64,000 nt of DNA from Candidatus Komeilibacteria bacterium (GCA_018656065.1 JABHZY010000024.1:160970-224969); one strand, 5' to 3'; shown: positions 18,733-63,992, counted from the stretch's first letter. The notes: a model not told the origin generated them from the sequence alone. Numbers and translations: made by a program.

Positions 18733-18946
18733 TAAAAAAACCCCGCGCTTTCATTGGCGACGGGGCTGCTACAAGCTACCAGGCATTTCTAGTCTCACCT
18801 CGACCATTGGTCCATATAGGTCCATATAGGAAGTGTACATTCAGAAAAGTCTTCTGAGCAGCTTGCCCGCAAAGGATTAATGGCAACTGGCGTTGCGATA
18901 CGTCTGAGACGTATACTTTTCCCTTGCTAAAAATAATACAAACGAA
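18733..18946 (-). ncRNA. unidentified promoter-to-terminator RNA unit 2 (~200 nt)
   Basis: The minus-strand promoter is TTGACA (18976-18981), 17 nt, TATAGT (18953-18958). The terminator hairpin ccccg...cgggg (18741-18765) is followed by a U-run. There is no SD-led ORF. Confidence 0.45.
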
Positions 18947-18995
18947 TAACACACTATAGCACAGACATGTATACTTGTCAATACCAAAATTAAAG

Positions 18996-19148
18996 TAAAA
19001 AAACAGAGAGGGCCCATGGGTAGCCCTCTCTAACCGCCAGAAACAAGCGCAACGAACCAGGTGGAACGCATTTGCTCTGACGGAAATCTCCATCAATATT
19101 GTCCTGTTGGACTTAGAAATGAGAATCGATATGGATGAACTCTTTTAC
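18996..19148 (-). ncRNA. unidentified promoter-to-terminator RNA unit 1 (~150 nt)
   Basis: The minus-strand promoter is TTGACC (19178-19183), 17 nt, TATACT (19155-19160). The terminator agagagggc/gccctctct (19005-19031) is followed by a U-run. There is no credible ORF. Confidence 0.45.
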
Positions 19149-19222
19149 TTTTTTAGTATACCCCAAATAAAAGCCAAGGTCAAAAAAACACCCCTGAAAA
19201 AAGAGGTGTTTTTATAAAATTA

Positions 19223-20638
19223 TTATTTTTTAATGCTCAAGCCTAATTCATCCAATTGTTCTTTGCCAACATCAGCTGGAGAATCTAGCATTGGATCTCT
19301 ACCATCTGAAGTCAAAGGAAAAGCAGTTACTTCTTTAAGATTTTTTTCTCCTAATATTACCATCAACAATCTATCTAAGCCTGGAGCTATACCGCCGTGA
19401 GGTGGCACACCATACTTAAAAGCTTCGTAATAGTGCTGAAACTGCTTCTTCTGTTCATCAGAAAATCCAATCAAATCCCAAACTTTTTCCTGAATCTTCA
19501 TATCATGAATACGAACAGCTCCACCACCGACTTCAAAACCATTAAGAGCTAGATCATGTTGATATGATCTAACTTTACCCGGATCACTATCTAGTAGTGG
19601 GATATCTTCTTCTTTGGGAGCGGTAAACATATTGTGACTTGGTCCCCAAGTATCTCCAGCACCCACAAACCTATCTTCATCAGTCTGCTCAGCAAATAAT
19701 GGAAAATTGACTATCCAAGCAAAGGCTAATTCATTTAGATCATTTTTGTCTTTTCTAAGATCTGGCTTATCATTACCATATTTTTTCATGGATTCGTCAT
19801 GGTCAATGCGTGGCCATGGTTTTTGAGTAATTTTTTTCTCTGGGAATAAAGTCTCTACCATTTCAGTGAACATACGTTCAGTTAAATCAAGAATCTCTTC
19901 TTGAGTCATAAAACTCATTTCCATATCTAATTGATAGAATTCACCTGGACTTCTATCTGCTCGAGCGTCCTCATCTCTAAAACAAGGCGCCACTTGAAAA
20001 TATCTATCCACACCAGCTACCATTAACAACTGCTTATATTGCTGCGGAGCTTGCGGTAAGGCAAAAAATTGCCCCTTATGAAGTCTAGAAGGCACTAGGT
20101 AATCTCTAGCTCCTTCTGGAGTAGATTTAGACAAAATCGGCGTTTGTATTTCTATGAAATCATTTTTGTGTAACCATTCTCTAAAAAAACTAATTACATT
20201 ATCACGAGCCACGATATTTCTGGTCATACGCTCATGACGAAGATCAAGATATCTATATTTAAGACGTAGTTCTTCATTAGCTTGACGTTCTTCATTATCT
20301 ATTTCAAATGGTGGAGTCTCAGACTCAGATAATACAATAATTTTCTTGGCTAGTATTTCTACAGTACCAGTAGCTAAATCTTTGTTGATTTGTTTAGCGC
20401 CACGATCTTGAACTACACCTTCAATTGCTAAAACAAATTCTGGACGAATATTTCCTAATATTTCTTGACTTGCTTCATCTAGTTCAGCTGGCACTGCTAC
20501 TACTTGTAGTATACCCCAACGGTCACGCAAGTCCAAAAAGGCAATCTTACCCATATTGCGACGGACATTAACCCAGCCTTTGACGAGTACTGTCTCGCTC
20601 GTTTTTCCGACTGTTTCTGTTGTTTTTATTCTATTCAT
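19223..20638 (-). CDS. aspS: aspartyl-tRNA synthetase, short form without the GAD insertion
   Basis: 471 aa with an OB fold (GWVNVRRNMGKIAFLDLRD), motif 2 (FRDEDARADRSPGEFYQLDMEMSF) and motif 3 (GIAPGLDRL). Confidence 0.85.
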   Translation of the reverse strand: MNRIKTTETVGKTSETVLVKGWVNVRRNMGKIAFLDLRDRWGILQVVAVPAELDEASQEILGNIRPEFVLAIEGVVQDRGAKQINKDLATGTVEILAKKIIVLSESETPPFEIDNEERQANEELRLKYRYLDLRHERMTRNIVARDNVISFFREWLHKNDFIEIQTPILSKSTPEGARDYLVPSRLHKGQFFALPQAPQQYKQLLMVAGVDRYFQVAPCFRDEDARADRSPGEFYQLDMEMSFMTQEEILDLTERMFTEMVETLFPEKKITQKPWPRIDHDESMKKYGNDKPDLRKDKNDLNELAFAWIVNFPLFAEQTDEDRFVGAGDTWGPSHNMFTAPKEEDIPLLDSDPGKVRSYQHDLALNGFEVGGGAVRIHDMKIQEKVWDLIGFSDEQKKQFQHYYEAFKYGVPPHGGIAPGLDRLLMVILGEKNLKEVTAFPLTSDGRDPMLDSPADVGKEQLDELGLSIKK

Positions 20639-20649
20639 ATTATAAAAAT

Positions 20650-20967
20650 TTAATCTATTGATTTTAAGATGTTATCAACTTCTTGATCGCTTACAAAAGT
20701 TTTGGTAATTACATTCTTTTCATCTTCTGAAAAATCTTTTACTAAAACAAAAGTTCCTTCTGTTTTATTATTGCCGATAGTATACTCTGTGACTACTACC
20801 CTAGCTAAAAAATTCCAATCATTATCTTTCAAATCCATAGGTACGTTGATCTGATATAATCTATGATTTTCTTTTTTGAAAGAATATTTTTTACCAAATT
20901 CTAAGACTTTTGGAATCTGATCATTATCTAATTTTAAACAAGCTTGTACTAAAAATGGATTACCCAT
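20650..20967 (-). CDS. hypothetical protein
   Basis: 105-aa ORF packed tightly between aspS and asnS. No family recognised. Confidence 0.45.
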   Translation of the reverse strand: MGNPFLVQACLKLDNDQIPKVLEFGKKYSFKKENHRLYQINVPMDLKDNDWNFLARVVVTEYTIGNNKTEGTFVLVKDFSEDEKNVITKTFVSDQEVDNILKSID

Positions 20968-20970
20968 ATT

Positions 20971-22260: not shown

Positions 22261-22398
22261 AATTGTATATTAACTAGCTTAAATATTACCTAAAATATCA
22301 ATATCTGACAAGTTTAATAAATTGACAAACAAGTGGTTATATTCTACAAATAATATAGTTCCCTCTCAAATACTCTAACTCCAACTTGGAGGTTTCCA

Positions 22399-22647
22399 AT
22401 GAAAAAGCCCGTTCCCCTACGAAAAACCATCAACTTGAAGTTGATTGGCAAGAAAGCTCAACTGATGAGGAACAAGTTTGATCCTCAAGGAAATCTTGTC
22501 TTTGCAAAAGGCCTCAAAGGTCTGATCACGATGGTATGCTTCTACACTATTGGAGACAAAGATATATTTAGAGTAAAAATGAAGCTTGACGACAAACCGC
22601 TTCATGAAATCACCTTTGATGGTTTCGATCTGGAACTCATCTATTGA
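22399..22647 (+). CDS. orphan 82-aa protein in a compositionally distinct cassette
   Basis: A GGAGG SD lies 8 nt upstream. The terminator is at 22649-22688. A weak promoter is TTGACA (22322-22327), 17 nt, TACAAA. Confidence 0.5.
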   Translation: MKKPVPLRKTINLKLIGKKAQLMRNKFDPQGNLVFAKGLKGLITMVCFYTIGDKDIFRVKMKLDDKPLHEITFDGFDLELIY

Positions 22648-22648
22648 A

Positions 22649-22688
22649 AAACGGCCTTGTCCAAGGAAGAATAGGCCGTTTTAAATTT
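22649..22688 (+). terminator. intrinsic terminator of the 82-aa ORF
   Basis: An aacggcct ... aggccgtt hairpin followed by tt-aaattt. Confidence 0.5.
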
Positions 22689-26088: not shown

Positions 26089-27228
26089 CTAATATTGAAT
26101 TTGAGTAAACTCAGTTGATCTTTCGCATTCACTTTTCTCACTTGAATCTTTAATATTAGCACAAACAGCTACATCCTTTGTCTTCACTGCTACATTATTA
26201 AAACACTTATCGCGAGTGCCTTTCTTCTCTATATTTTCACAAAATGAAGCATCTCTAGCGGCCAAAGCAGCTCCGTAACTACATTCATATCTATCGTCAT
26301 TATCATCTAAATAAATACATGCTTCTGAATTTTTAGCGTTTTTAGCCATATTTATAAAACAATATTTTTTTTTGGAATCATTTTCAATTTGTTTACAAAG
26401 CTCAATATCAAATTTTTCAACAGCTATATCTGAATAACAGCTATCTTTATCCCTGCCGCCAACTATTTTATCACAAAGATCTGTGTCGGACTTTTCAATC
26501 GCAATCCCTAAAAAACAATTATCCTTAATTGATTGACTAGCTATTTTATCACAAATAGCAAGATCTATTTTTTTTATACCAATATCAGATAAACAATTAT
26601 CGCGATATGAACCCTCTTCTATTTTCTCACAAATTGATTCATCCTCCATTTCTTCAGCTACTGCGGCAATGCACTTACTTAAAACGGAAGCCCTACCCTC
26701 AACTTTATCACAAATTGAAATGTCTTTTTTATTTATTGCAATTTCTGTATAACAATTAGAAGTTTTGAATGATTCTTCTACTCTGACGCAAATACTTTCA
26801 TCATTTTTATCAATTGCTATATCATTAAAACAACTAGCTCGAGTAGATTTACTAGATATTTTATCACAAAGATTTTCGTTTTTAGATTCTTTGGCTATTG
26901 TATTATAACAACTCCCCTTAGTATTATCTTTTGAAATATCAGCACAAATATCAGAGTCTTTCTTTAAAATAGCCACGCTAGAAAAACAAGAATCTTTACT
27001 GGATTCCTTATCTATTAAATCACAAACTGACTTATCTTCTTTAGCTTCGGCTACTGCAATTAAACACCTTTCCTGTCTAGACTGATCTTCTTTCATTTTA
27101 AGACAGATTTTTGGGTCTTTCTTATTAATAGCCTTATTCATATCTGCATCCAAAGAATCAAAAATTCCACAACCACTTAAGAAAAATATCCCGAAAGTCA
27201 AAAGTAAAAGGAATTTAATTTTTTTCAT
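26089..27228 (-). CDS. lipoprotein made of about 12 tandem 26-aa two-cysteine repeats
   Basis: The lipobox-like start is LLLTFGIFFLSGC. The repeat unit runs C-x2-I-x8-C-x3-(I/V)A-x3-D-x3, for example CDKISSKSTRASCFNDIAIDKNDESI. Confidence 0.7.
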   Translation of the reverse strand: MKKIKFLLLLTFGIFFLSGCGIFDSLDADMNKAINKKDPKICLKMKEDQSRQERCLIAVAEAKEDKSVCDLIDKESSKDSCFSSVAILKKDSDICADISKDNTKGSCYNTIAKESKNENLCDKISSKSTRASCFNDIAIDKNDESICVRVEESFKTSNCYTEIAINKKDISICDKVEGRASVLSKCIAAVAEEMEDESICEKIEEGSYRDNCLSDIGIKKIDLAICDKIASQSIKDNCFLGIAIEKSDTDLCDKIVGGRDKDSCYSDIAVEKFDIELCKQIENDSKKKYCFINMAKNAKNSEACIYLDDNDDRYECSYGAALAARDASFCENIEKKGTRDKCFNNVAVKTKDVAVCANIKDSSEKSECERSTEFTQIQY

Positions 27229-29660: not shown

Positions 29661-29698
29661 GTCAAAATTTTACCCCGGGCCGCTTGGCGACCCAGGGT
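29661..29698 (-). terminator. terminator-like 12-bp GC hairpin after the multi-HTH gene
   Basis: On the minus strand ACCCUGGGUCGC-CAA-GCGGCCCGGGGU is followed by AAAAUUUU. Confidence 0.5.
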
Positions 29699-29704
29699 AC
29701 AGTG

Positions 29705-30706
29705 TCAGCTCTGGGAAGTGTCCCGGAACTTGACCTTGCAAACAACGAGCTCTGCGGAGCCCTTCTCAATGGTCTTGACGACCCCTCTCCTCATCAGCTC
29801 GCTGATAGCTCGACGACATGTCGTATTGCTGATACCAGCTTTTTTAGCGGCCTTGAAGACCTTGCGCTTCAGATTAAGAACCCTGACTTTCTTGAGGGAT
29901 TTCGGATAATCCTCATCCTCAACGACTCCCATCAGGAGATCTACAGCCGCCTGCTGCTTGACCGGCAGAAGCGGCTGATGGCTCCAGAAACGATGTCCAC
30001 GCAGCTGCTTGGCAGTACGCTTCCTCCGTTTCTGCTTATCAACCTCTGACTCGGAAACAAGACCGTAACGCTGCTTGACCTCGGACAGCTCACCATCGGG
30101 ATCAAGTACGATCTCCATGACGTCCTGGATATCACGCTGGGTAATTTCCAGATTAATGTCATCACAGAGAACGTGGATCTTGCCCACTGAATGAATCAAC
30201 GCTTCATGATCCTTGATCTCATTGTTCAGGACACCCCAAAGCCACTCCTGAGTCCATCCCAGCCTACGAGCAGCCGCCCGAAAACTGATGTCTTTACTCA
30301 GAATATGCTTCCTGAGGCGAAAGAAGACGTTTGGCATATTGTCGAGCTCCTGGGTATAAAAACCCTTGGCGCGCAACCAGTACTGCCACATCAGCCAGTC
30401 GGCTCGCTGCGGGATAGCCTCGCCATACAACCAGCGACGAATAGCCCGCTCGCTACGACCAGTAAAGTGCATTAGCTCCTTCACCGCCCGCCCGACGAAG
30501 CCACTTCTCTTCAGATCAGCCAGACAGGCATCACGACAGGCATCGGTATCAAAACCGACGTAAATAATCTCTTCCGGCGAATTCCGGAAAGCATACATGA
30601 AGAGCGGCAGCTCTTCAGACATGACTTCTGCAATCTCCCTATCATCGACTTCATGATCTGCCTGATCCAGGACTGCCTGAACTATTGTCTTGTGTTTGTT
30701 ACTCAT
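29705..30706 (-). CDS. orphan GC-rich protein with three helix-turn-helix-like segments
   Basis: The likely start is the ATG at 30706 (MSNKHKT), with GGAGG 8-9 nt upstream. HTH-like stretches are RSERAIRRWLYGEAIP, ISFRAAARRLGWTQEWL and GISNTTCRRAISELMRRGVV. Confidence 0.6.
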   Translation of the reverse strand: MSNKHKTIVQAVLDQADHEVDDREIAEVMSEELPLFMYAFRNSPEEIIYVGFDTDACRDACLADLKRSGFVGRAVKELMHFTGRSERAIRRWLYGEAIPQRADWLMWQYWLRAKGFYTQELDNMPNVFFRLRKHILSKDISFRAAARRLGWTQEWLWGVLNNEIKDHEALIHSVGKIHVLCDDINLEITQRDIQDVMEIVLDPDGELSEVKQRYGLVSESEVDKQKRRKRTAKQLRGHRFWSHQPLLPVKQQAAVDLLMGVVEDEDYPKSLKKVRVLNLKRKVFKAAKKAGISNTTCRRAISELMRRGVVKTIEKGSAELVVCKVKFRDTSQS

Positions 30707-30787
30707 GGGGTAGACCTCCATGTCTTTCTTATTGTGGTGAACAACCTTCCATGGACTAAATACCCATGAATTACGAATGGGACTTCT

Positions 30788-30817
30788 ATTTTTAACATAA
30801 AAAGCCACTTTTGTCAA
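30788..30817 (-). promoter_or_regulatory. promoter of the multi-HTH gene
   Basis: On the minus strand TTGACA (30812-30817), 17 nt, TAAAAAT. It directly follows the terminator of the upstream hydrolase gene (agaccgcg...cgcggtct). Confidence 0.5.
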
Positions 30818-30870
30818 TAATAGCAATTAAAAAAGACCGCGTAGAGCGCGGTCTATATAAATATAATTTT

Positions 30871-36209: not shown

Positions 36210-36211
36210 TA

Positions 36212-36276
36212 TTGACCCGTTCGACTCGTTACACTCGCTCAGGGTCAATCCTGAGCGAAGTCGAACGGATTGACAA
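36212..36276 (+). repeat. 65-bp GC-rich palindromic intergenic repeat, copy A
   Basis: The sequence is ttgacccgttcgactcgttacactcgctcagggtcaatcctgagcgaagtcgaacggattgacaa. It is 61/65 identical to the reverse complement of 39469-39533. Confidence 0.85.
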
Positions 36277-36298
36277 TATATACGAAATTGTATATACT
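36270..36298 (+). promoter_or_regulatory. promoter of tRNA-Lys
   Basis: TTGACA (the last bases of repeat copy A), 17 nt, TATACT. Confidence 0.55.
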
Positions 36299-36611: not shown

Positions 36612-38069
36612 ATGAGTAAAATACCTCCTCAAAATTTAGAAGCAGAAAGCTCACTCTTAGGCGCTCTCCTACTTGATAAGGAAACAATTATCAAGGTTGG
36701 TGATGTTTTGCGTCCTAGTGATTTCTATAAAGAAGGTAATGGTTTGATCTATCAAGCCATTTTAGATTTATTTGAAAAACATGAACCAGCTGATATTTTA
36801 TCTGTTGGTAATAGATTAGCTGAAAAAAAACAATTAGAAAGTGTTGGCGGCAAAGCTTATTTGGCTGAACTAACTGCTTCTGTACCTAATTCTTCTCATG
36901 CAGTATCATACGCTGATATTATTCACAAAAAAGCAACTTTAAGAAAATTAGAACGAGCTGCTAGCGAAATATCCGAATTTTCTTTTTCCGAAGACAAAGA
37001 TGTCTCTAGCTTATTAGATCAAGCTGAACAAAAACTTTTTGCTATTTCTCAAGAATCTCTCAAGAAAAACTTTATTCCTATTAAAAATGTTTTAACAGAA
37101 ACTTTTAATCGTATTGATGAATTACATAAATCAGGTGGCCAAGGTACTCGTGGTATTCCAAGTGGCTTTACTGATTTAGATAATAAACTATCTGGTTTTC
37201 AAAATTCTGATTTAATTATCTTAGCCGCTCGTCCATCTCTAGGTAAAACAACTCTAGCTCTAGATATCGCTAGAAATATTGCTGTTAAAGCTAATACAGC
37301 AGTTGGTATATTTTCTCTGGAAATGAGTAAAGAACAATTAGTAGATAGACTACTAGCTTCTGAAGCTGAAGTTGATCTTTGGAAAATGAGAACTGGTAAA
37401 CTTTCTGATAAAGAAGAAGATGATGATTTTCCTCGTATTGGTCGGGCTATGGGTGTCTTATCAGAAGCTCCAATATTTATTGATGATAGCGCCAATGCCA
37501 ATGTAATGGAAATTCGTACTAAAGCTCGTCGTTTAAAAATGGAACATAATCTTGGCTTTTTAGTAATCGATTATTTACAATTAATGGAAGGTGATTCTGG
37601 CGGCAGCGAAAATAGAGTTCAGGAAATATCCAAAATTTCTCGTGCTCTTAAGCAAATCGCTCGTGAGCTTGATATTCCAGTTTTAGCTCTATCTCAACTT
37701 TCTCGTGCCGTAGAAGCTAGATCGCCGGCTATTCCAAAACTAGCTGACCTTCGTGAATCTGGATCCATTGAGCAAGATGCTGATATTGTAATGTTTATCT
37801 ATAGAAAGGCTAAAGATAAATCACGTGAGTGTCCTGATGAAGAAAGAAATATAGCTGAAATACATATTGATAAACACAGAAATGGTCCAACTGGTATTTG
37901 TAGATTCATTTTCGATGAATCTAAGGTATCATTTAAAAACCTAAGTAAAGATTATCAAAATATACTTCCGCCACCTGAAGCTGAGGCTGATGAAATGCCT
38001 ATTCCAAGTAATGGAAATTTCAAAAATAATAAACCACAAGCAGAAACAGCTTGGCAAAACATACCTTAA
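36612..38069 (+). CDS. dnaB: replicative DNA helicase
   Basis: 485 aa with IPPQNLEAESSLLGALLLD. Walker A is ARPSLGKTT. It has a RecA-like C-terminal domain. Confidence 0.9.
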   Translation: MSKIPPQNLEAESSLLGALLLDKETIIKVGDVLRPSDFYKEGNGLIYQAILDLFEKHEPADILSVGNRLAEKKQLESVGGKAYLAELTASVPNSSHAVSYADIIHKKATLRKLERAASEISEFSFSEDKDVSSLLDQAEQKLFAISQESLKKNFIPIKNVLTETFNRIDELHKSGGQGTRGIPSGFTDLDNKLSGFQNSDLIILAARPSLGKTTLALDIARNIAVKANTAVGIFSLEMSKEQLVDRLLASEAEVDLWKMRTGKLSDKEEDDDFPRIGRAMGVLSEAPIFIDDSANANVMEIRTKARRLKMEHNLGFLVIDYLQLMEGDSGGSENRVQEISKISRALKQIARELDIPVLALSQLSRAVEARSPAIPKLADLRESGSIEQDADIVMFIYRKAKDKSRECPDEERNIAEIHIDKHRNGPTGICRFIFDESKVSFKNLSKDYQNILPPPEAEADEMPIPSNGNFKNNKPQAETAWQNIP

Positions 38070-38091
38070 AATAATTAACTAAAAACAAAAT

Positions 38092-38382
38092 ATGTTTAAC
38101 AAACTAAAACAATACAACGACCTTAGAAAACAAGCCAACACTATTAAGAGCGCCATGTCTGAAGAAAGCGTTGAGGTTAGTAATAAGGCTGTTACAATAA
38201 TCATGGACGGTAACCAAGAAATTACCAGCTTGGATATAAATGAAGACTTTTTGTCAAAAGACAAAAAGAAAGAATTAGAAAAAGAAATTACCAATGGCAT
38301 TGCTAATGCTATCAAAAAGGTACAACGTAAGATGGCTATGAAAATGCAACAAATGGGTGGTCTAGACAACCTAATGAAATAG
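38092..38382 (+). CDS. ybaB: YbaB/EbfC family nucleoid-associated protein
   Basis: 96 aa in the conserved position upstream of recR, with a typical basic/coiled pattern. Confidence 0.75.
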   Translation: MFNKLKQYNDLRKQANTIKSAMSEESVEVSNKAVTIIMDGNQEITSLDINEDFLSKDKKKELEKEITNGIANAIKKVQRKMAMKMQQMGGLDNLMK

Positions 38383-38466
38383 AGACATTACAAACTATAA
38401 CTTATCTGCTCCGCTGTTTCACAGAGTTGCATCTAAGCTATAGTTTTTGCAAATAATCAAAACCAG

Positions 38467-39063
38467 ATGAAACATCTACCAGACTTTATACAAAGACTGA
38501 TAAACGAATTTGATAAACTACCTGGAATTGGGCCAAAGACTGCCTCCAGGTTAGTTTTTAATTTGCTTCATAGAAAAGAAGATATCAAAGAATTGTCTGA
38601 AGCTTTGGCTGATGCCTATAAAAATATTCATCTTTGCCCACAATGCTACAATTTAACAGATGATGGCTTATGTAGCATCTGTCGTAATCCGCAAAGAGAC
38701 AAAAGTACTATTTGTATAGTAGCTAATAATCAAGATGTAGAAGCTGTAGAAAAAACCGCTGAATTCAACGGTGTTTATCATTTACTGAACGGATTACTTA
38801 GTCCACTAGAAGGTATTACTCCTGATAAATTAAAAATAAAAGAATTAGCTGATAGAATAAAAAATAACGGCGTCACTGAAATAATCTTAGCCCTTGACCA
38901 AAGTATGGAAGGTGAGGCTACTACTATCTACTTATCAAAATTTCTCCAAGACTATCCTGTGATAATTAGCCAATTAGCCCGAGGCATACCAATGGGTGCT
39001 AATATAGAATACACTGATGAAATTACATTAACCTCGGCACTCAAGAATAGAAAAAAGATATAA
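38467..39063 (+). CDS. recR: recombination protein RecR
   Basis: 198 aa with HhH (LPGIGPKTASRL), a C4 zinc finger (CPQC...CSIC) and a Toprim domain. Confidence 0.9.
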   Translation: MKHLPDFIQRLINEFDKLPGIGPKTASRLVFNLLHRKEDIKELSEALADAYKNIHLCPQCYNLTDDGLCSICRNPQRDKSTICIVANNQDVEAVEKTAEFNGVYHLLNGLLSPLEGITPDKLKIKELADRIKNNGVTEIILALDQSMEGEATTIYLSKFLQDYPVIISQLARGIPMGANIEYTDEITLTSALKNRKKI

Positions 39064-39064
39064 A

Positions 39065-39094
39065 CAAAAAATCCCGCTAGAGGCGGGATTTTAT
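39065..39094. terminator. bidirectional terminator between recR and rplU
   Basis: An aatcccgc-tagag-gcgggatt hairpin flanked by an A-run and a T-run. Confidence 0.6.
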
Positions 39095-39107
39095 ATTTGA
39101 TATTATT

Positions 39108-39422: not shown

Positions 39423-39446
39423 AGTTTTGTTATTATAACGAGGTAA

Positions 39447-39533: not shown

Positions 39534-39568
39534 TAATATAGCTTTTATAATACAAAGCTTTGTTTATA

Positions 39569-51161: not shown

Positions 51162-51722
51162 TTATTTCATAGTAAACACCTTTTTAAATAAATCGTGTCT
51201 AGCCTTAATTTTCTTTTTAGCAAAAGGAAAACAAATCTTCACATTATAATTTCTATCTAATTTTTCTAACACCCATTCTTTATAACCCTTTAGACTCCTT
51301 TGACCTGTTACTGCTATCTGTAGATAAAAATCATTATGATAGTGAGCCATGGCATCAGCCGTAGCTAAAATTTTTCCCTCTACAGTTTTTGGTTTTTGAT
51401 CATTAAAACAAGAGTGAGACAGTATAATCTTCTGAACTTTATCTATAGTCAATTTATTATACCCAAACTGCTTCATTACTTTTTCAGCTTCACGAGCCCC
51501 TATCTTTTGATGATCACCTTTTAATCCTCGTATCCTTTGCAAATCATGAAGCCATACACCAAGCATAACAATTTCTTTATTTGCTTTGGGTAGTTTAGAA
51601 AGTAACCATTTGGCAAATTTTTCTACTCCCAATAAATGAACTGAAAAAAACCAATCAGCTATTAGACCCTTTGAGCACTCTTTTTTAATTAAACTTTTTA
51701 TTTGTTGTATATTTTTACTCAT
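51162..51722 (-). CDS. HD-domain phosphohydrolase
   Basis: 186 aa with H...HD metal motifs (SVHLLGV, VWLHDLQR). Confidence 0.65.
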   Translation of the reverse strand: MSKNIQQIKSLIKKECSKGLIADWFFSVHLLGVEKFAKWLLSKLPKANKEIVMLGVWLHDLQRIRGLKGDHQKIGAREAEKVMKQFGYNKLTIDKVQKIILSHSCFNDQKPKTVEGKILATADAMAHYHNDFYLQIAVTGQRSLKGYKEWVLEKLDRNYNVKICFPFAKKKIKARHDLFKKVFTMK

Positions 51723-51764: not shown

Positions 51765-51804
51765 AGACAAAAAGAAAGACCCGCCACGTACTACGTAGCG
51801 GGTC
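51765..51804 (-). terminator. intrinsic terminator of the GC-rich 232-aa gene
   Basis: On the minus strand gacccgc-tacgtagtacgt-ggcgggtc, then tttcttttt. Confidence 0.65.
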
Positions 51805-51827
51805 TATCAGTCCACTTGGTGGACCAA

Positions 51828-52526
51828 TCAATGTCTCCTCCTTGAGCGAGTGTGCTCGTCCGGCTTCGGTGTGAAGACGAATCTGACAACCGCTTGTGGT
51901 TTCCACTCGCCACCGAGCTCACGATACTGGATCGCGGCCTCAACTCGAAGTTTCGAGTCCTTCTTGCCCCAGCGCTGGTGCGCATGGAGGTTGAAAGCCA
52001 TGTTGAGACCAACGCCATTGCTGATCATATCATCGTCTAGGTCACCCCAGCCCTCTACTTCAGCCCCGCATTCAATGAACGGACTGAGATGAAGCTCGGC
52101 CTGAGCTAAGTAGTAGAAGGATTTGGTTTCGAGTTGGTACTCCAGATTGGAATAAGCATGCCAAGTTTCCCATTTAGGATAGAGTCGTAGGCCAGTGACC
52201 CACTCCTCATCTCGGAAGCTGTAGCCTACTACAGATTCGAGGTCTCCAAACTGAAGACCAAGATACACATAGAAGGGCTTATCTTCCTTTTCCAGAACAT
52301 CGTAACAGACGCCCTGGAGACGAGACTTTACTTGATCGGACAACTGGCCCATCCAATCGAGTCTGAATTCACCACGCGGCGGATGAGTTGACTTGTCCCA
52401 AATGGGAATGTTTCCACCACGGGACAAGCCCTTGGCATCAACTTCCACCACAACAGCCATGAGAACCACGGCCGCCAACAAGATAACAAGCATCCTCTGC
52501 GAGGTAAGGCTTTTGTTAGAGAACAT
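51828..52526 (-). CDS. orphan GC-rich secreted, beta-strand-rich protein
   Basis: 232 aa. The SD is GAAGGAGG. The signal peptide is MLVILLAAVVLMAVVVEVDA. An alternating-hydrophobic pattern is visible (FYVYLGLQF, VGYSFRD, GLNMAFNLH, VVRFVFT). Confidence 0.6.
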   Translation of the reverse strand: MFSNKSLTSQRMLVILLAAVVLMAVVVEVDAKGLSRGGNIPIWDKSTHPPRGEFRLDWMGQLSDQVKSRLQGVCYDVLEKEDKPFYVYLGLQFGDLESVVGYSFRDEEWVTGLRLYPKWETWHAYSNLEYQLETKSFYYLAQAELHLSPFIECGAEVEGWGDLDDDMISNGVGLNMAFNLHAHQRWGKKDSKLRVEAAIQYRELGGEWKPQAVVRFVFTPKPDEHTRSRRRH

Positions 52527-52640
52527 GGTTCTCCTCCTTCTGTATTAAATCTTGGTTAGCTTACTAACCTGTTTTGAATGACCGATACTAAGGTATACGG
52601 TCAAAAGACACGTTTTGCACACCTTAGTAATGAATATAGT

Positions 52641-52669
52641 ATTATATCACAAATTACAAAAATTGTCAA
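52641..52669 (-). promoter_or_regulatory. promoter of the 232-aa gene
   Basis: On the minus strand TTGACA (52664-52669), 17 nt, TATAAT (52641-52646). Confidence 0.6.
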
Positions 52670-52700
52670 TTATAGTTTATTATTATGATTAAAGTTATAA

Positions 52701-52729
52701 TTGACAAAATATATAAAATATGGTATGAT
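52701..52729 (+). promoter_or_regulatory. promoter of the 454-aa gene (divergent)
   Basis: TTGACA (52701-52706), 17 nt, TGgTATGAT (an extended -10, 52721-52729). Confidence 0.6.
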
Positions 52730-52766
52730 TGTATATTCCGTAATGCCCTTTTTACAAACTAATATT

Positions 52767-52880
52767 CGCTTCTCCCCTAAGTATCTATAGGGTATTTTGG
52801 GGAGGAGCGGAAAACATTAACGAAAGGTAGTCCTAATCCTCCCAGTTACAGACTTCTGTAACTGAAATGTTTCTTTTTTC
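52767..52880 (+). promoter_or_regulatory. structured 5' UTR with a terminator-like element (candidate attenuator)
   Basis: An 11-bp hairpin cgcttctcccc/ggggaggagcg lies at 52767-52809. A 9-bp hairpin cagttacag-actt-ctgtaactg at 52843-52864 is followed by aaatgtttcttttttc, just before the SD. Confidence 0.4.
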
Positions 52881-52895
52881 TATGGAGGTAGCGCG

Positions 52896-54260
52896 ATGCT
52901 ACGGACTCTATTCTGCGTCATGTTGTTGGTGGCGACAGTCAGCATCTGCGGTGCTCAGGTTCCGGAAGGTGGGCTTTACCGGCTCGCTGACGGCACTCAC
53001 GAGTACATCGTGGATGATGCTGATGATGTTGGTCTCTGGCAAGTGGCGTTCGGGCAGAAAAGCCTGTGGGCCGAGTTGGTCAAGGTCAATCCGCAACTAG
53101 TGGATCCAAACTTGATTATGCCCGGTGACAAGCTAATCATTCCCGAGGCACTGGTTCGCCTGTTCGAATTCAGGCGAGCTCCTCTGGATACTACATCAGA
53201 GGAAACCCATCTGAACGGCACCGAAGCCGACACTGAGGCCACTGTGGTCTCAATTGAAAGCGAAGATAAGAAGAGCTGGAACCTACCCTGGTGGGCCTGG
53301 ATCTTCATCGCTTGTCTCGTTGGCCTTATAGCCAGATGGTGGGGCTCAACTGGAGAGAATCAGAAACTCTCCGAAGCCCGCAGGCAAGAACATCAAGAAG
53401 AGGCCAAAAGGGAAAAGCAGCGAGAGCACGCCGATCCCTACCATGGACCTCCTGTGGTCCCGGGTGGCCTACCGACCCCTGAGCTAGCGGCTCGTCACTT
53501 CGCTGGTGAATACCAGAATCGGCGTGGTGCAACCACCGTGGACGAGTCTGCCCAACAACCCGAACGCGTAACCATCGACCGTATCGTACCGGTCGAGATC
53601 CGCGGTCAGTGGTGTGTGGCTGACGCCAACTCCAAGGAACCGGTCGAGAAGAACATCCCCGACTGGGAGCCTGCCTGGCAGTGCTTCCTCTCCGACGACA
53701 GTTGGTCTGTCACGCTCATGATGTGCGGGAACGACGTGTGGATGGGTACGCGAACCACTCCCATGGAGAACGGCGAGATCCAACCCCGGCAGGATATGGA
53801 AGCAATCGAGATGAACCAGCAGGTCTGGCCGATCGTCACCAACGAAGAGCCCGATGAGCTGGAACTGCCCGATGAGCTGAACAACCTCCGGGAAGTTCGC
53901 TTCAAGTCCAATCGACAGGTGGTCGTACTGTTCCACGGCGATCGCGAACAGGAAAACTGGGAAATCCCAGCTGCCCTGTCCGAGCTGGTCACGCTTTCGC
54001 TGAGCGAAGGTCAACTGATTGCTACAACGATCGACGGAACTCAACGAGTGCTCGGCGTCATCACGGATCAACCGGAAGCTGATCTGCAGGCAAGTCTCGA
54101 CAACGAGGCAGAAAGCCTGATGGGTCCTACTGATCCGGAAGCTGAGATCCTCGCTGCTGATGAGCAGGATGGAACTACTCGTCGCTACCAAGATCACTCC
54201 AGTCCACCTCAAGGTGGACAAGCCGCCGATCAACCAGGAGAAGATCAGCCGGAGGCCTAG
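52896..54260 (+). CDS. orphan GC-rich membrane protein with an N-terminal YgaU-type LysM-like domain
   Basis: 454 aa. The SD is GGAGG. The signal peptide is MLRTLFCVMLLVATVSICGAQ. The LysM-like stretch is GLWQVAFGQKSLWAELVKVNPQLVDPNLIMPGDKLIIP. The TM helix is WWAWIFIACLVGLIARWW. The tail is charged and acidic. Confidence 0.6.
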   Translation: MLRTLFCVMLLVATVSICGAQVPEGGLYRLADGTHEYIVDDADDVGLWQVAFGQKSLWAELVKVNPQLVDPNLIMPGDKLIIPEALVRLFEFRRAPLDTTSEETHLNGTEADTEATVVSIESEDKKSWNLPWWAWIFIACLVGLIARWWGSTGENQKLSEARRQEHQEEAKREKQREHADPYHGPPVVPGGLPTPELAARHFAGEYQNRRGATTVDESAQQPERVTIDRIVPVEIRGQWCVADANSKEPVEKNIPDWEPAWQCFLSDDSWSVTLMMCGNDVWMGTRTTPMENGEIQPRQDMEAIEMNQQVWPIVTNEEPDELELPDELNNLREVRFKSNRQVVVLFHGDREQENWEIPAALSELVTLSLSEGQLIATTIDGTQRVLGVITDQPEADLQASLDNEAESLMGPTDPEAEILAADEQDGTTRRYQDHSSPPQGGQAADQPGEDQPEA

Positions 54261-54288
54261 CCTCCACACGCGATCACAGATCGCAAAC

Positions 54289-54326
54289 GGCGGGCGCCCC
54301 TCACAGGGTGCCCGCTTTTCCTTTTG
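54289..54326 (+). terminator. intrinsic terminator of the 454-aa gene
   Basis: gcgggcgcccct-cac-agggtgcccgc, then ttttcctttt. Confidence 0.7.
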
Positions 54327-57649: not shown

Positions 57650-59227
57650 TTAGATTAAAGAGCTGCCGGTCATTTCCGGTGGTTTTTTGATACCCATAAT
57701 TTTTAATACTGTAGGTGGCACGTCAGCTAAAACTCCTACTGGAGTGACATGACTAAGGTCTGTGCCAACATTACCAGCTAAAACACTTTTTCCCGCAAAA
57801 TCATCACCAACGATAAATAATGGTACTGGGTTGTTGGAATGTAATTTGCTGATTTCACCACTTTGAAGATCATAAAGTTTTTCTGCATTACCATGATCAG
57901 CAGTTATTAAAGTTAAACCTCCATAGGACAAAACAGTATCTACCAATTCTCCAATTAATTGATCTATAATTTCTATAGCTTCTATAGTTGCTTGCATATT
58001 TCCCGTATGCCCAACCATATCTGGATTAGCATAATTAACTACAATAAAATCATATTGCCCTTCTTTAATGGCTTGAGTAATTTTTGAAGTAAGTTCTCGA
58101 GCTGACATAGCTGGCTTCTCAGCATAGGAAGTAACTTGAGGGGAAGGAACTAAAACTCTATCCTCTCCTTCGTAAATAGTTTCCTGTCCACCATTAAAAA
58201 AATAAGTAACGTGAGCATATTTTTCAGTTTCAGCAATATGAAGTTGTTTAAGCCCTGCCTCAGATAAAACTTTAGCTAAAGGCACATCTATAACCAAGGG
58301 TGGAAAAGCCACTTGGACAGGTAAATCTTTTTCATATTCTGCCATAGTAACCATAAAAAGATTTTTAAAATATGGTCTTTTGAATTTTTCAAAACCTGGC
58401 AGAGTTAAAGCCTGTGTTAATTGCCTAGCTCTATCTGATCTAAAATTAAAAAATATTACACTATCACCATCTTTGATGGTACCTTTTGGTTTGCCAAGAT
58501 CATCTAATATTACAGTTGGTACAAACTCTTCATCGTAGACTTCTTTATCATATGATGCTTGAATAGCCTCCAAAGCATCTTCATATTTTTCATCTGATTC
58601 GCCATCTACTATAGCTCGCCAACTTTTTTCTATTCTATCCCAACGATTATCTCGATCCATAGCATAAAAACGGCCACTCAAACTAGCCACCACTCCAATA
58701 CCAACCTTTTTTAATTTTTCTTGTAATTTACTAACAAAATTAATACCACTATTACGAGGAGTATCACGACCATCTAAAAAAGCATGCACATAAACTCTAG
58801 ACACTTTTTGTTGATGAGCTAATTCTAATAAAGCATACAAATGTTCATTATAACTATGAATACCTCCTGAACTTACTAAACCTATAAGGTGTAAAGCCTT
58901 TTCATTCTTATTAGCATTTTCACAAGCCTTAATAAAAGTTTCATTATTATAAAACTCTCCATCTGTGATAGCTTTAGTAATCCTAGGTAAATTTTGATAA
59001 GGAATTACTCCTGAACCTAAAGAAAGATGACCTACTTGGGAATTGCCCATTTCACCCCAAGAAAGCCCCACTGCTTCACCGCTAGCTGCCAAAGGCATAA
59101 TAGGATAGTTCTGTGAATATTTATCAAAATTTGGTGTTTTAGCTAATGAAATAGCATTAGATCTAGAAGGCGGAGCAATGCCAAATCCATCTAATATTAC
59201 GAGTACTACTGGTCTAGGTCTTTTCAT
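57650..59227 (-). CDS. gpmI: 2,3-bisphosphoglycerate-independent phosphoglycerate mutase, copy 1
   Basis: 525 aa with ILDGFG, GNSQVGH (catalytic Ser), DMVGHTG and TADHGNAE. Confidence 0.85.
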   Translation of the reverse strand: MKRPRPVVLVILDGFGIAPPSRSNAISLAKTPNFDKYSQNYPIMPLAASGEAVGLSWGEMGNSQVGHLSLGSGVIPYQNLPRITKAITDGEFYNNETFIKACENANKNEKALHLIGLVSSGGIHSYNEHLYALLELAHQQKVSRVYVHAFLDGRDTPRNSGINFVSKLQEKLKKVGIGVVASLSGRFYAMDRDNRWDRIEKSWRAIVDGESDEKYEDALEAIQASYDKEVYDEEFVPTVILDDLGKPKGTIKDGDSVIFFNFRSDRARQLTQALTLPGFEKFKRPYFKNLFMVTMAEYEKDLPVQVAFPPLVIDVPLAKVLSEAGLKQLHIAETEKYAHVTYFFNGGQETIYEGEDRVLVPSPQVTSYAEKPAMSARELTSKITQAIKEGQYDFIVVNYANPDMVGHTGNMQATIEAIEIIDQLIGELVDTVLSYGGLTLITADHGNAEKLYDLQSGEISKLHSNNPVPLFIVGDDFAGKSVLAGNVGTDLSHVTPVGVLADVPPTVLKIMGIKKPPEMTGSSLI

Positions 59228-59228
59228 T

Positions 59229-60794
59229 TTATTTAATAATTAAAGATTTTTCACTTATTAATTTTGGTTTCTTTATATTTAATATATCTAAAACAGTTGG
59301 TGCTATACTAGCTAATTTACCATTAGCTCTTAATTTAAAATCATGATGATTAACAATAATAAAAGGCACTGGATTAATAGAATGCTCAGTATCAATTTCC
59401 CTAGTCTTTAAATTAATCATCTCTTCTACATTACCATGATCAGCAGTAATAATAACTGTGCCTTGTTTTGCTAAAGTTGCTTTAATAATCTGGCCAACAG
59501 ATTTATCTACTAATTCTACTGCCTTGATGCCAGCTTCTAAATTACCAGTATGCCCGACCATATCTGGAGCTGCAAAATTAGCTAAGACAAAATCATATTT
59601 ATCAACTTTAAGATCTTTAATAACTCGCTTAGTTAATTCAACAGTACTCATAGCTGGATCTTCGGCATAAGAATTAACATCTTTAGAAGGAATAACTATC
59701 CAATCTTCTCCAGCCACCGGATGAGCATATCCGCCGTTGAAAAAATAAGTGACGTGGGCATATTTTTCTGTTTCAGCAATGTAACATTGACGAATATCCT
59801 TAAGAGCCATTGGTAAAGTATCTGGAATATCAATACCAGGATAAGCTGTTAGTACACCTTCTAAGTCAGGTCCGAAATCTGTTAAAGCCACGAACAATAA
59901 ATTTTCAATTTTTTTACCGGGTTTAAAAGCTCCTGGATTTTTTTTAGTAAAATTTGGCTGAGCAAAAGTTTTGCTCAGTTGTCGAGCTCTATCTGATCTC
60001 AAATTAAAAAATATAACTGAATCATTACTATTAATAGCGCCAATTGGCTTGCCATTTTTATCAACCACAACAGAGGGCTCGATAAATTCATCGCTTTCTC
60101 CTCTATTATAGCCTTGATTTACTGCTTCTACAGCGCTAGTAACTTGATGCCCCTTACCCCTAACTAAAGCATCAAAAGCCTTTTTAGTTCTTGGCCAAGA
60201 TTTTTTTCTATCCATAGCATAAAAACGACCCATAACACTAGCAATCTTGACTCTATCGCTATTAAATATTGATGTATATTGACTAAGAATTTTAAGTGCT
60301 GCAAATGGTGGAGAATCACGACCATCACTGAAAAGATGAAGATATATATTTTGCTTAGTACGGCTAATAAAAAAACTGATTAAGGACAAAATATGATCAT
60401 CATTAGAATGAGGACTAGAACCATCTGATAAAAGTCCCATTAAATGAACGTCTGAATTATGTTCTGTTACATGATGGGCCGCTTGCAAGAAAGCGGGATT
60501 TTTAAAAAAGGTACCATTATTAATACTCTTAGAAATAATCACCGCATCTTGCTCAACTACTCTGCCTGCCCCGATATTCATATGACCAGCTTCTGAATTA
60601 CCGGGTTGCTTGTTCGACAAACCAACGTCTTTAGCAGAAGCCTGCAATAAAGTATTAGGATATTTTTTGTAAAGCTCGTCTATAACTGGAGTTTTAGCCA
60701 AAGCAATAGCATTACCTTCTTTTTTATCCCAAACACCCCAACCATCTAATATTAAAAGCAATAAAGGCGTATTAATTTTCTCTATATCTGACAT
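59229..60794 (-). CDS. gpmI: 2,3-bisphosphoglycerate-independent phosphoglycerate mutase, copy 2 (divergent tandem paralog)
   Basis: 521 aa with ILDGWG, GNSEAGH, DMVGHTG and TADHGNVE. Confidence 0.8.
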   Translation of the reverse strand: MSDIEKINTPLLLLILDGWGVWDKKEGNAIALAKTPVIDELYKKYPNTLLQASAKDVGLSNKQPGNSEAGHMNIGAGRVVEQDAVIISKSINNGTFFKNPAFLQAAHHVTEHNSDVHLMGLLSDGSSPHSNDDHILSLISFFISRTKQNIYLHLFSDGRDSPPFAALKILSQYTSIFNSDRVKIASVMGRFYAMDRKKSWPRTKKAFDALVRGKGHQVTSAVEAVNQGYNRGESDEFIEPSVVVDKNGKPIGAINSNDSVIFFNLRSDRARQLSKTFAQPNFTKKNPGAFKPGKKIENLLFVALTDFGPDLEGVLTAYPGIDIPDTLPMALKDIRQCYIAETEKYAHVTYFFNGGYAHPVAGEDWIVIPSKDVNSYAEDPAMSTVELTKRVIKDLKVDKYDFVLANFAAPDMVGHTGNLEAGIKAVELVDKSVGQIIKATLAKQGTVIITADHGNVEEMINLKTREIDTEHSINPVPFIIVNHHDFKLRANGKLASIAPTVLDILNIKKPKLISEKSLIIK

Positions 60795-63236: not shown

Positions 63237-63245
63237 AATAAACTA

Positions 63246-63611
63246 CTATTCTTTTGGTATAAAAATACTTGTTACAAAATCATGTTCGGCCAACTCACAA
63301 AGTACATCAGTCGGAATCTGAGCTAAACCATGATCAAATATCCAAGAATCTTTTCTCATACTAACGCCTAATTTATTTAATTCTGTAGTCACTTCTTCAC
63401 TAATTGGCACTTCTTTAAAGCTAATAAAAGCTCCAATTAGACTAGTATCACCCCTCAGACTATAAACTGAAGCATCTATTTTATCAGAAGCACAGCCAGC
63501 AGTATATTGTAAAATATTTTCTTCTACTGGTTGCTCATTAGTAGAATAAAAAATAAAGCCTAAAACTACGGCAATTACTAATAAAATAATCATTATATAT
63601 TCTTTTTTCAT
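63246..63611 (-). CDS. hypothetical membrane-anchored protein
   Basis: 121 aa with an N-terminal TM helix. It lies upstream of pgk. Confidence 0.45.
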   Translation of the reverse strand: MKKEYIMIILLVIAVVLGFIFYSTNEQPVEENILQYTAGCASDKIDASVYSLRGDTSLIGAFISFKEVPISEEVTTELNKLGVSMRKDSWIFDHGLAQIPTDVLCELAEHDFVTSIFIPKE

Positions 63612-63698
63612 ACAATAAATAAAGAAATTTAATATTAAACTGTAAGAGTATTATAACATTTTTGAAAGATTTTTGAAACTAAAATTTAACTGTTATTA

Positions 63699-63727
63699 TT
63701 GACAAATACAAAGATCAATGTTATGAT
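63699..63727 (+). promoter_or_regulatory. promoter of the small GC-rich cassette
   Basis: TTGACA (63699-63704), 17 nt, TATGAT (63722-63727). The track ORF start at 63699 is this -35 box read as a TTG codon. Confidence 0.55.
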
Positions 63728-63797
63728 AATTGTTCGTTCATTTTCGCCGCCCTATCATAGGGCACTTACTCGATGTTTCCGTCAGGAAAGGATGTCT

Positions 63798-63917
63798 ATG
63801 ACGCGCGAACAAAAACAAGCATTCGGTTACGGATTCGGCAGGTTCGCCCTGCAGTACAAGCTCTGGAAGTTCATCTTCCTCTTCTCGTTAATCATCGGCC
63901 TAGCCGCCAGGAGCTGA
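63798..63917 (+). CDS. 39-aa small membrane peptide
   Basis: MTREQKQAFGYGFGRFALQYKLWKFIFLFSLIIGLAARS. A GGAAAGG SD lies 6 nt upstream and can be sequestered by the hairpin tttcc-gtca-ggaaa. Confidence 0.45.
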   Translation: MTREQKQAFGYGFGRFALQYKLWKFIFLFSLIIGLAARS

Positions 63918-63949
63918 CATCATGACTGCTGAGCAGTCTTTCACATATG

Positions 63950-63992
63950 ACCATTCTTTTAAGCTTCGGCTTGATTGAATGGTTTTCTTTTT
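63950..63992 (+). terminator. intrinsic terminator of the small cassette
   Basis: An accattc...gaatggt stem with an inner aagc-ttcg-gctt tetraloop hairpin, then tttcttttt. Confidence 0.6.

Follow-up and report, generated by a model that had tools for sequence, protein, structure and literature searches.

GC-rich single-gene transcription units in the AT-rich backbone of a Candidatus Komeilibacteria contig: long-resident genes with predicted highly structured transcripts

Why should single genes of high G+C content (GC), each with its own promoter and terminator, stand among the AT-rich housekeeping genes of an ultra-small bacterium? The question is raised by a stretch of 64,000 nt (GCA_018656065.1 JABHZY010000024.1:160970-224969; hereafter the window), which is part of a 448-kb metagenome contig of Candidatus Komeilibacteria within the Patescibacteria or candidate phyla radiation (CPR). 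An earlier interpretation made from the DNA alone (the sequence-only reading) had described six GC-rich blocks in this window and attributed them to repeated acquisition from a GC-richer donor or to a cassette-type mobility mechanism. Our analysis gives a different answer: with a probability of roughly 0.55, the strong blocks are conserved native transcription units, that is, envelope and secreted-protein genes with selected, highly structured transcripts. As set out below, these units are native, old, protein-coding and monocistronic, with a GC-richness that is actively maintained; folding models predict their transcripts to be structured beyond composition, with occluded start sites; and we infer selection on the transcript for nuclease stability and/or gated, low-rate initiation.

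The backbone outside the blocks has a GC of 0.32, and GC at third codon positions (GC3) is 0.15-0.27 in nearly all native open reading frames (ORFs; typically ~0.20), giving a two-peaked distribution in which the ORFs of the blocks lie at 0.47-0.62. Scored against same-length windows of this backbone, block 3 (29661-30817; GC 0.507, z 7.5), block 4 (39569-40203; GC 0.485, z 5.3) and block 5 (51765-54326; GC 0.519, z 9.8) reached values found in none of the background windows. Block 1 (GC 0.426, z 3.0) and block 6 (GC 0.442, z 2.9) showed a moderate rise, among the top 0.4-0.6% of windows. The bulk GC of block 2 (0.381, z 1.6) was equalled by 6% of background windows and is not significant, the GC3 of its ORF being 0.47. 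The proposal of six GC-rich blocks thus stood strongly for blocks 3, 4 and 5 and moderately for blocks 1 and 6 but failed for block 2; the hand counts given in its support (36/60, 34/60 and 21/60) were exact on recount. The three strong blocks (29.7-30.8, 39.6-40.2 and 51.8-54.3 kb) comprise four protein-coding transcription units with a GC of 49-57% and a GC3 of 0.54-0.62, block 5 consisting of two divergent units, 5a and 5b (GC 0.51 and 0.57), around an AT-rich spacer (GC 0.33).

The anomaly extends well beyond bulk composition. In the four strong genes relative to native genes, leucine is encoded by TTA at a share of 0.01 vs 0.51 and by CTG at 0.35 vs 0.04, isoleucine by ATA at 0.04 vs 0.38, and lysine by AAG at 0.72 vs 0.22; GC is raised at all three codon positions, in the size order GC3 > GC1 > GC2. 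Composition-normalised tetranucleotide profiles of the blocks correlated with the backbone at r 0.12-0.38, compared with 0.87-0.89 for backbone pieces among themselves, and in oligonucleotide signature the blocks resemble each other more than they resemble the backbone. Formal GC, tetranucleotide and codon-usage analyses therefore agree that the anomaly is real for the strong blocks. Its edges match the ends of the transcripts and leave the adjoining genes unaffected, confirming an earlier remark that the shift begins near the transcription start and not upstream of the promoter. This proved to be the key clue, as selection on the transcript would make the anomaly start near the transcription start and end at the terminator.

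The strong units share one layout. A TTGACA-17-TAnnnT promoter, in most cases bearing an extended -10 TG, is followed by a leader 80-160 nt long, a GGAGG-type Shine-Dalgarno sequence (SD) and, past the stop codon, a GC-rich terminator hairpin; promoter scores are on par with that of the L10 operon. Block 3 (minus strand) begins directly after the terminator of a hydrolase gene (30834-30854), with a promoter at 30788-30817 (TTGACA, 17 nt, TG-n-TAAAAT) and a coding sequence (CDS) for 333 aa at 29705-30706 (ATG 30706-30704 with a GGAGG SD; GC 0.50, GC3 0.58); its 3' GC hairpin (29672-29698) lacks a clean U-run and adjoins a TTGACA promoter at 29665 facing tRNA-Asn. Block 4 (plus strand) comprises a promoter at 39569-39597 (TTGACA-17-TATACT with TG; 11/12 matches), a CDS for 147 aa at 39702-40145 (GC3 0.54) and a terminator at 40170-40202 (10-bp stem with 7 GC pairs, T-run). 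The AT-rich spacer of block 5 carries back-to-back divergent promoters at 52641-52729, both with an extended -10 (52669-52641, minus strand, 12/12 matches; 52701-52729, plus strand, 11/12). From these, 5a (minus strand) runs through a structured 5' leader (52527-52634; z -3.9), in which a predicted hairpin encloses the SD and the AUG, into a CDS for 232 aa (51828-52526; GC3 0.57) and a terminator with a 13-bp stem and T-run (51777-51805). On the plus strand, the structured and conserved 5' leader of 5b (52736-52895; z -3.4) is predicted to form a long hairpin followed by a CCUCC anti-SD paired to GGAGG around a second hairpin, ahead of a CDS for 454 aa (52896-54260; GC3 0.62) and a terminator at 54289-54326 (11-bp stem with 9 GC pairs, T-run).

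Across all blocks, TTGACA-17-TAxxxT promoters, mostly with the extended -10 TG, occur at 30817, 39569, 52669, 52701, 63699, 19183 and 18981, and terminators are present for blocks 1, 4, 5a, 5b and 6. The sequence-only reading had pictured six discrete cassettes with such promoters, long hairpin-rich 5' untranslated regions (UTRs) and GC hairpins followed by a U-run. The picture of single-gene promoter-to-terminator units between housekeeping genes and of structured leaders is borne out, but block 5 is two units, the promoter of block 2 is weak and block 3 departs at its 3' end.

What do these units encode? The 5b protein has a signal peptide, a LysM-like domain, a transmembrane (TM) helix, an alpha/beta domain with invariant Cys and Trp, and an acidic tail; its LysM motif is conserved in all five homologues, scoring 18.2 bits in Pfam (below the 20.9 cut-off) and E 2.3e-8 against the SafA-type LysM model of NCBIfam (below its full-length cut-off). 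The 5a protein combines a signal peptide with a beta-rich domain bearing a GxExEGWG motif, and its distant relatives end in a hydrophobic RxHLFL C-terminus. The block 4 protein has an N-terminal anchor or signal peptide. The block 3 protein is cytoplasmic and multi-HTH, with several weak HTH matches, and the window copy carries ~100 extra C-terminal residues (winged-helix, wHTH) relative to homologues of 235-242 aa. No firm family beyond the LysM-like domain and weak HTH matches was assigned to the strong-unit products, PHROGs and NCBIfam scans included. A structural model of 5b built from five sequences (predicted local distance difference test, pLDDT, 58) gave no PDB fold match with E < 0.1, and a single-sequence prediction for 5a (pLDDT 39) was unusable. 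The earlier description of the products as orphans therefore stands as to family, but blocks 3, 5a and 5b do have orthologues in relatives.

Could the islands be an artefact, GC-rich fragments joined to an AT-rich genome by chimeric assembly, as their very sharp composition boundaries might suggest? The 5b protein is encoded on 13 contigs and the block 4 protein on 24, from many samples and assemblers and with constant neighbours, the block 5 and block 4 contigs being 99.9-100% identical to the window in DNA. These junctions were recovered independently, by different assemblers, in at least 8-10 samples, and the same layout recurs in four other species, which leaves this explanation a negligible probability. 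The mis-assembly check thus excluded a chimera by independent assemblies. One contig (L021, ERZ508549 NODE_7640; L-numbers are labels of compared contigs or genomes, mostly relatives) is mosaic relative to window positions 36824-43692, with 99.9% identity over 36824-41130, including block 4, then 87-91% over murC/PBP; it reflects either strain recombination or a low-coverage strain-level assembly chimera.

The strong units proved to be old residents of their sites. The divergent 5a/5b pair occurs in L009/L013 and L011 (backbone GC 0.36) at the same locus, flanked by the L10 operon and yceG, with a GC of 0.55-0.59 and a GC3 of 0.65-0.72; both block 5 promoters are kept in L009 and L011 and, like the 5b leader, are more conserved than the CDS. 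Identity to the window is 47-48% for 5b in L009, L011 and L013, and 55-58% for 5a in L009 and L011. A HMMER scan for 5a yielded 27 representatives, two of which (L111 and L112) again lie between yceG and L10 at only 26-27% identity, with a GC of 0.55-0.57 and a GC3 of 0.67-0.75 in backbones of 35-36% GC. Orthologues of block 3 stand directly after the hydrolase gene in L015, L016 and L017 (50-54% identity; GC 0.52-0.56, GC3 ~0.7), and the promoter and small TM-peptide ORF of block 6 are kept at the same site in L009 and L011. The 5b family comprises only five 90%-identity clusters among 5.8 billion proteins, every named one from Patescibacteria; its homologues in L014 (46% GC) and L012 (a 56% GC contig) lie in different contexts and are 10-15 points GC-richer than their surroundings. 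Across the family, gene and backbone GC percentages are 57/32, 59/36, ~60/46 and ~65/56, the gene always lying above its host genome.

Divergence of the GC-rich genes scales with that of the genome. Identity between L009 and L011 is 80-82% for GC-rich genes and 85-96% for housekeeping genes; between the window and L009/L011 the values are 47-58% and mostly 75-88%, and between the window and L111/L112, 26-27% (5a) and 57-83%. The proteins of the GC-rich genes thus evolve 2-3x faster than housekeeping proteins. Equally GC-rich orthologues (GC3 0.64-0.75) at the same sites leave a recent foreign acquisition of the strong units without support.

An old import that has kept its foreign composition can also be assessed, by comparing four-fold degenerate sites of conserved residues. 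At housekeeping sites the window differs from L009/L011 by 0.52, and the difference between strong (G or C) and weak (A or T) classes at those sites is 0.32-0.33, close to the saturation level of 0.36. A two-state model gives kT ~2.2-2.5, at which each lineage retains ~30% of any initial GC excess. GC at four-fold degenerate sites (GC4) of the GC-rich genes is nevertheless 0.58-0.64 in every lineage (window, L009 and L011), so that a single ancestral import would need an initial GC4 above 1. Likewise, the block 3 gene has a GC4 of 0.55-0.72 in three mutually saturated lineages. Within the L009-L011 pair, the only one short of saturation, four-fold divergence is lower in GC-rich genes (0.193, n=249) than in housekeeping genes (0.285, n=1332; Fisher p 0.002), despite their faster protein change. 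Counts of strong-to-weak vs weak-to-strong changes between L009 and L011, with the window as a saturated outgroup, gave ratios as expected from a random outgroup and were uninformative, and the population contigs, at 99.9-100% identity, hold too few single-nucleotide polymorphisms for a polymorphism analysis.

These data bear on the explanation nearest to the earlier proposal, namely that a GC-richer pool (host, phage, plasmid or GC-rich Patescibacteria) time and again supplies single units to intergenic hot spots, in the manner of phage morons, and that these units have not yet ameliorated. The anatomy fits the definition of a moron, with its own promoter and terminator and deviant GC (PMC3594210). 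Block 4, which has an unchanged context in 24 contigs, is an orphan specific to its species, with no homologue but itself among 5.8 billion proteins; L011 holds an extra GC-rich PHA_gran_rgn gene; and the differing contexts of the 5b family in L012 and L014, together with the mutual resemblance of the blocks in oligonucleotide signature, would also follow from import. Four units (3, 5a, 5b and 6), however, have same-site orthologues diverging in step with the genome down to 26% identity, saturated synonymous divergence rules out an un-ameliorated relic, and the promoters follow the native style, being conserved along with their leaders. Scanning viral contigs with the proteins of 5b, block 3 and block 4 gave no match, nor did a blastn comparison of block 5 with plasmids and phages; a donor lineage was not found either, all named homologues being from Patescibacteria. 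Nor do the surroundings suggest a prophage or mobile element: housekeeping genes flank the units, and no phage family was matched. No boundary repeat or attC-like site is common to the blocks, the sole boundary similarity (19179-19216 with 40203-40240) being a terminator followed by TTGAC, and no integrase appears in the Pfam or gene-context tables of the window. We therefore consider serial import unlikely as the source of the composition; for the strong units the proposed foreign donor was not supported, given the same-site orthologues, and the cassette mechanism found no boundary repeat or integrase to act with.

Presence and absence in relatives is variable only for block 4, block 2 and one unit of block 1 (1b), which are present in the window but not at the same site in close relatives, whereas blocks 3, 5a, 5b and 6 are conserved. 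The block 5 locus offers a further comparison: an HD gene at 51162-51722 (minus strand), between the L10 leader/promoter and the 5a terminator, occurs in the window's species only and is absent from L009, L011, L111 and L112, marking a true indel. Although variable, it is AT-rich and of native composition, the opposite of what would be expected if acquired meant GC-rich, and it speaks against the import explanation.

Could the composition instead be a by-product of how these genes recombine or mutate? GC-biased gene conversion (gBGC) would raise GC by biased repair if fast-evolving surface-protein genes were recombination hot spots; the two- to three-fold faster protein evolution fits this, and the mosaic L021 contig hints at recombination or a strain chimera. 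In bacteria, gBGC has an effect of a few percent, far below the GC3 shift of +0.35-0.5 seen here. The edges at transcript ends with unaffected flanking genes do not suit it either, and conversion would alter composition only, not structure relative to the composition-keeping shuffles described below; we regard it as quite improbable. Relaxed selection, in which streamlining holds the backbone AT-rich and weakly constrained orphans drift to a GC-richer equilibrium, agrees with the lineage restriction and high non-synonymous/synonymous ratio of the GC-rich genes. It would be hard to reconcile with the non-coding spacers, which are the most AT-rich sequence of all (GC 0.20-0.30), with the stronger conservation of synonymous sites of GC-rich genes in the unsaturated pair, or with the recently gained HD gene being AT-rich; moreover, mutation is AT-biased in all bacteria so far examined, to our knowledge. 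Its probability is accordingly very small. Transcription-coupled or diversity-generating retroelement (DGR)-type mutagenesis was rejected because A and T are depleted symmetrically.

What then holds the composition in place? Predicted mRNA folding was compared with two sets of shuffles, one permuting synonymous codons within the whole gene, so that protein and codon composition are kept, and one permuting them within 150-nt windows, so that local composition is kept as well. In whole-gene shuffles the four window genes were more stable than chance (z -4.5, -2.5, -3.2 and -4.9), against +0.3 to -2.3 for six native genes and -0.2 to -1.5 for housekeeping genes from Patescibacteria of 50-56% GC; the same-site orthologues of relatives gave z -2.1 to -5.6. 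The signal survived local shuffling, with an excess stability of 6-20% in the GC-rich class (z -1.6 to -6.0) relative to -5 to +6% (z +0.9 to -1.6) in native and 50-56% GC housekeeping controls (Mann-Whitney p 1.6e-4), and for block 3 the z score moved from -4.5 in the whole-gene shuffle to -5.2 in the local one. At equal GC, the mean minimum free energy per 120 nt was -39 to -43 kcal/mol in the GC-rich class vs -33 to -34.5 in housekeeping genes, and in two genes folding of the sense strand is more favourable than that of the antisense strand by ~8-10 kcal/mol per 120 nt. An excess over composition-preserving shuffles is not explained by origin, and so further disfavours import.

Structure is also predicted where translation starts. 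The start regions (-30 to +30) of the GC-rich units fold at -7.2 to -10.3 kcal/mol vs -3.6 for native genes (sd 2.5, n=51), and in 5a, 5b and block 3 the SD and/or the AUG lies inside a predicted hairpin. The anti-SD/SD pairing of the 5b leader is kept in three species, with one compensatory pair among just 3 sequences.

Such strong predicted structure raises the possibility that the islands are large structured non-coding RNAs and their ORFs by-products of high GC. Structured RNAs are known to stand out in AT-rich genomes as GC-rich intergenic islands, block 1 is apparently non-coding, and long ORFs occur on both strands of the islands (for example, 53484-54269, minus strand). The antisense ORFs were treated as high-GC by-products. 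On the sense strand, however, substitutions are concentrated at third codon positions and protein alignments are conserved down to 26-37% identity, with signal peptides, a LysM-like domain and TM helices; inside the blocks no Rfam family was matched even at E up to 1, sub-threshold terminator-like matches aside. For the islands as a whole, a non-coding nature is highly improbable.

We therefore return to the reading of conserved native units under transcript-level selection, which may be put as follows. The units would be long-resident and vertically inherited in a Komeilibacteria-like Patescibacteria lineage and encode lineage-restricted proteins, mostly exported or membrane-anchored. Their GC-richness would be a property of the transcript, held by selection at the nucleotide or RNA level: a hairpin-rich leader would occlude the SD and the start codon, and synonymous codons would be arranged for more secondary structure than chance, up to the intrinsic terminator. 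The resulting mRNAs may be long-lived and nuclease-resistant, and translated at a gated or low initiation rate. CPR cells are reported to have a very low ribosome content, and in such ribosome-poor, ultra-small cells envelope proteins might in this way be made, or timed, from few transcripts. The weak blocks could be smaller versions of the same layout, carrying small RNAs (block 1) or small peptide genes (blocks 2 and 6), and a minority of slots gain and lose unrelated GC-rich orphans.

Several points weigh against this reading. RNA structure is throughout a computational prediction, and why these products would need it we infer. The excess is neither universal in the class nor confined to it: the homologue in L109 shows none (z -0.2), and DsbA of L012, an ordinary secreted-protein gene, shows one (z -3.8). 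The amelioration estimate presupposes a two-state stationary model, branches of equal length and a mutation process common to both gene classes, and the synonymous constraint is seen in one unsaturated pair and 249 sites, saturated pairs showing no difference. Other points concern turnover and would equally favour import. In L015 the block 4 slot, beside rplU, contains two GC-rich genes unrelated to block 4, one encoding a 166-aa exported protein (GC3 0.67, structure z -5.6). In L087 and L029, whose aminoacyl-tRNA synthetase (aaRS) is 94% identical, the block 2 slot is occupied by two other orphans; an unrelated 89-aa GC-rich ORF fills it in L016. New GC-rich genes do arrive from somewhere, and slot turnover is part of the picture, yet it does not account for the composition. 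In L109, finally, a GC-rich class with recognisable families (VWA, GGDEF) fits import from a GC-richer pool.

The L109 contig (1076-8573) has an AT-rich backbone (rubrerythrin, dnaG and rpoD; GC3 0.24-0.29) with a GC-rich gene cluster (GC3 0.51-0.87) encoding YARHG, GGDEF and VWA proteins, a 649-aa protein and a homologue of the 5a family. This suggests that a two-class composition extends beyond the Komeilibacteria-like clade. Near the aaRS gene, 80 metagenome loci yielded a single further clear ORF of this class (L037 3848-4450, z -4.3), too few to gauge its generality. A bolder and more tentative idea, which we think possible but would not favour, is that ultra-small CPR bacteria have a post-transcriptional class of envelope or secreted-protein genes defined by composition, in which a rise in GC of 20-25 points (35-50 at third positions), kept up over deep evolutionary time, serves hyper-structured, nuclease-resistant, gated 'stored' mRNAs in cells with very few ribosomes. 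A signal such as contact with a host might unlock these mRNAs, and if the idea is true, GC-rich islands would be a sequence-only marker of a regulon across Patescibacteria. Compositional outliers are usually read as horizontal transfer, and GC-rich islands as structured RNAs; neither shortcut holds here. If confirmed, the result would mean that composition can mark a functional gene class and not an origin, would call for caution in composition-based calls of horizontal gene transfer and in bin decontamination of CPR genomes, and would offer an entry, from sequence alone, to post-transcriptional control and host-facing envelope proteins of uncultured, ribosome-poor bacteria.

The weaker blocks are more modest in size and content. 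Block 6 (63699-63994, plus strand; GC 0.44) comprises a promoter at 63699-63727, an ORF for a 41-aa membrane peptide at 63792-63917 and, as terminator, a hairpin at 63950-63983. Beyond the right end of the window (L001 21123-21365), the next unit starts with TTGACA-17-TATAAT, followed by an alpha/beta-hydrolase gene that has a GTG start and an elevated GC (0.46). Block 2 (22322-22688, plus strand) has its weak promoter, an 82-aa orphan ORF at 22399-22647 and a terminator hairpin at 22651-22679. Block 1 holds no credible ORF, as the sequence-only reading had noted of one block, and its two units, both on the minus strand, are therefore probably small RNAs. Unit 1a (19004-19183; promoter 19155-19183, terminator 19004-19032), probably a non-coding RNA of ~140 nt, is alignable with L032 and contains no conserved ORF; other relatives have a unit at the same position. 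Unit 1b (18734-18981; promoter 18953-18981, hairpin 18741-18765 with U-run), probably of ~210 nt, is confined to the window's species.

Other features of the window were recorded in passing. An internally palindromic element of 73 nt, bearing TTGAC at either end, is found at 36210-36282 and, inverted and 93% complementary, at 39463-39535; the copies flank tRNA-Lys-dnaB-ybaB-recR-rplU, one lying between the rplU and block 4 promoters, and the core recurs at a different site in a relative (L039, ~7828-7845). It has the look of a palindromic small mobile element (MITE/REP-like) or of a shared regulatory hairpin. A 0.48 GC island at 11649-11994 (minus strand) surrounds tRNA-Tyr (11813-11898), with GC-rich hairpin-like sequence on both sides of the tRNA and, upstream, a motif resembling this core, gctcagggtca. 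A 379-aa ORF at 26089-27228 (minus strand) consists of 78-nt (26-aa) tandem repeat units, and two tandem paralogous iPGM (metalloenzyme/iPGM_N) genes lie at 57650-60794 (minus strand), the pair being kept in relatives.

How do these units compare with known systems? Phage morons carry a promoter and a terminator of their own and a GC unlike that of their neighbours (PMC3594210). The present units share with them, and with horizontally acquired islets, the single-gene format, the sigma-70-type promoter, the intrinsic terminator, the position between conserved genes and the deviant GC; unlike them, they sit in a housekeeping backbone, are mostly conserved at the same site to synonymous saturation, keep their high GC without decay and have yielded no donor. 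Integron gene cassettes differ in another way, being usually without promoters, whereas each unit here has its own; the blocks share no attC-like boundary repeat, and the window's Pfam and context tables list no integrase. GC-rich intergenic RNAs such as LOOT RNA likewise form GC-rich islands between AT-rich genes, and the block 1 units are probably of this kind, unlike blocks 3-5, which are protein-coding. Rfam recovered five tRNAs, the L10 leader and LOOT RNA over the window, the last (RF03000) at 5028-5140 (plus strand) with 71.7 bits, well above its gathering score.

At the level of codons, the bldA/TTA system of Streptomyces is a codon-class regulon, and here too codon usage marks a gene class (as in the CTG and AAG shares above). 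The present case is a mirror image, with GC codons in an AT genome, and involves all codons as well as the UTRs. A tRNA-Glu with anticodon CTC (CUC in RNA; 41041-41115, minus strand) decodes GAG only, which makes up 23% of native Glu codons and 54% in GC-class genes; for now its presence counts as no more than a coincidence. Katz and Burge reportedly described selection for local secondary structure of mRNA within bacterial coding regions, and the GC-rich units resemble such cases in that native codon order is more stable than synonymous shuffles. They differ in forming a discrete class, in the size of the effect (6-20% of folding energy, with GC raised by 20-25 points) and in their occluded starts, set against the reduced structure at translation starts that is reported as a universal trend (PMC2816680). 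Our models place the SD and/or the AUG of 5a, 5b and block 3 in leader hairpins. Such sequestration is known from RNA thermometers such as ROSE/fourU and from translational riboregulators; here no Rfam leader or thermometer was matched and the predicted structure spans the whole CDS. Although our coverage of the literature was incomplete, we found no description of a conserved GC-rich structured gene class of this type in it. Taken together, deviant single-gene units (morons) and selection for structure in coding mRNA are each known, and what we consider new is a discrete GC-rich class, bearing predicted structure and start-site signatures and held at syntenic sites through saturated divergence in AT-rich CPR bacteria.

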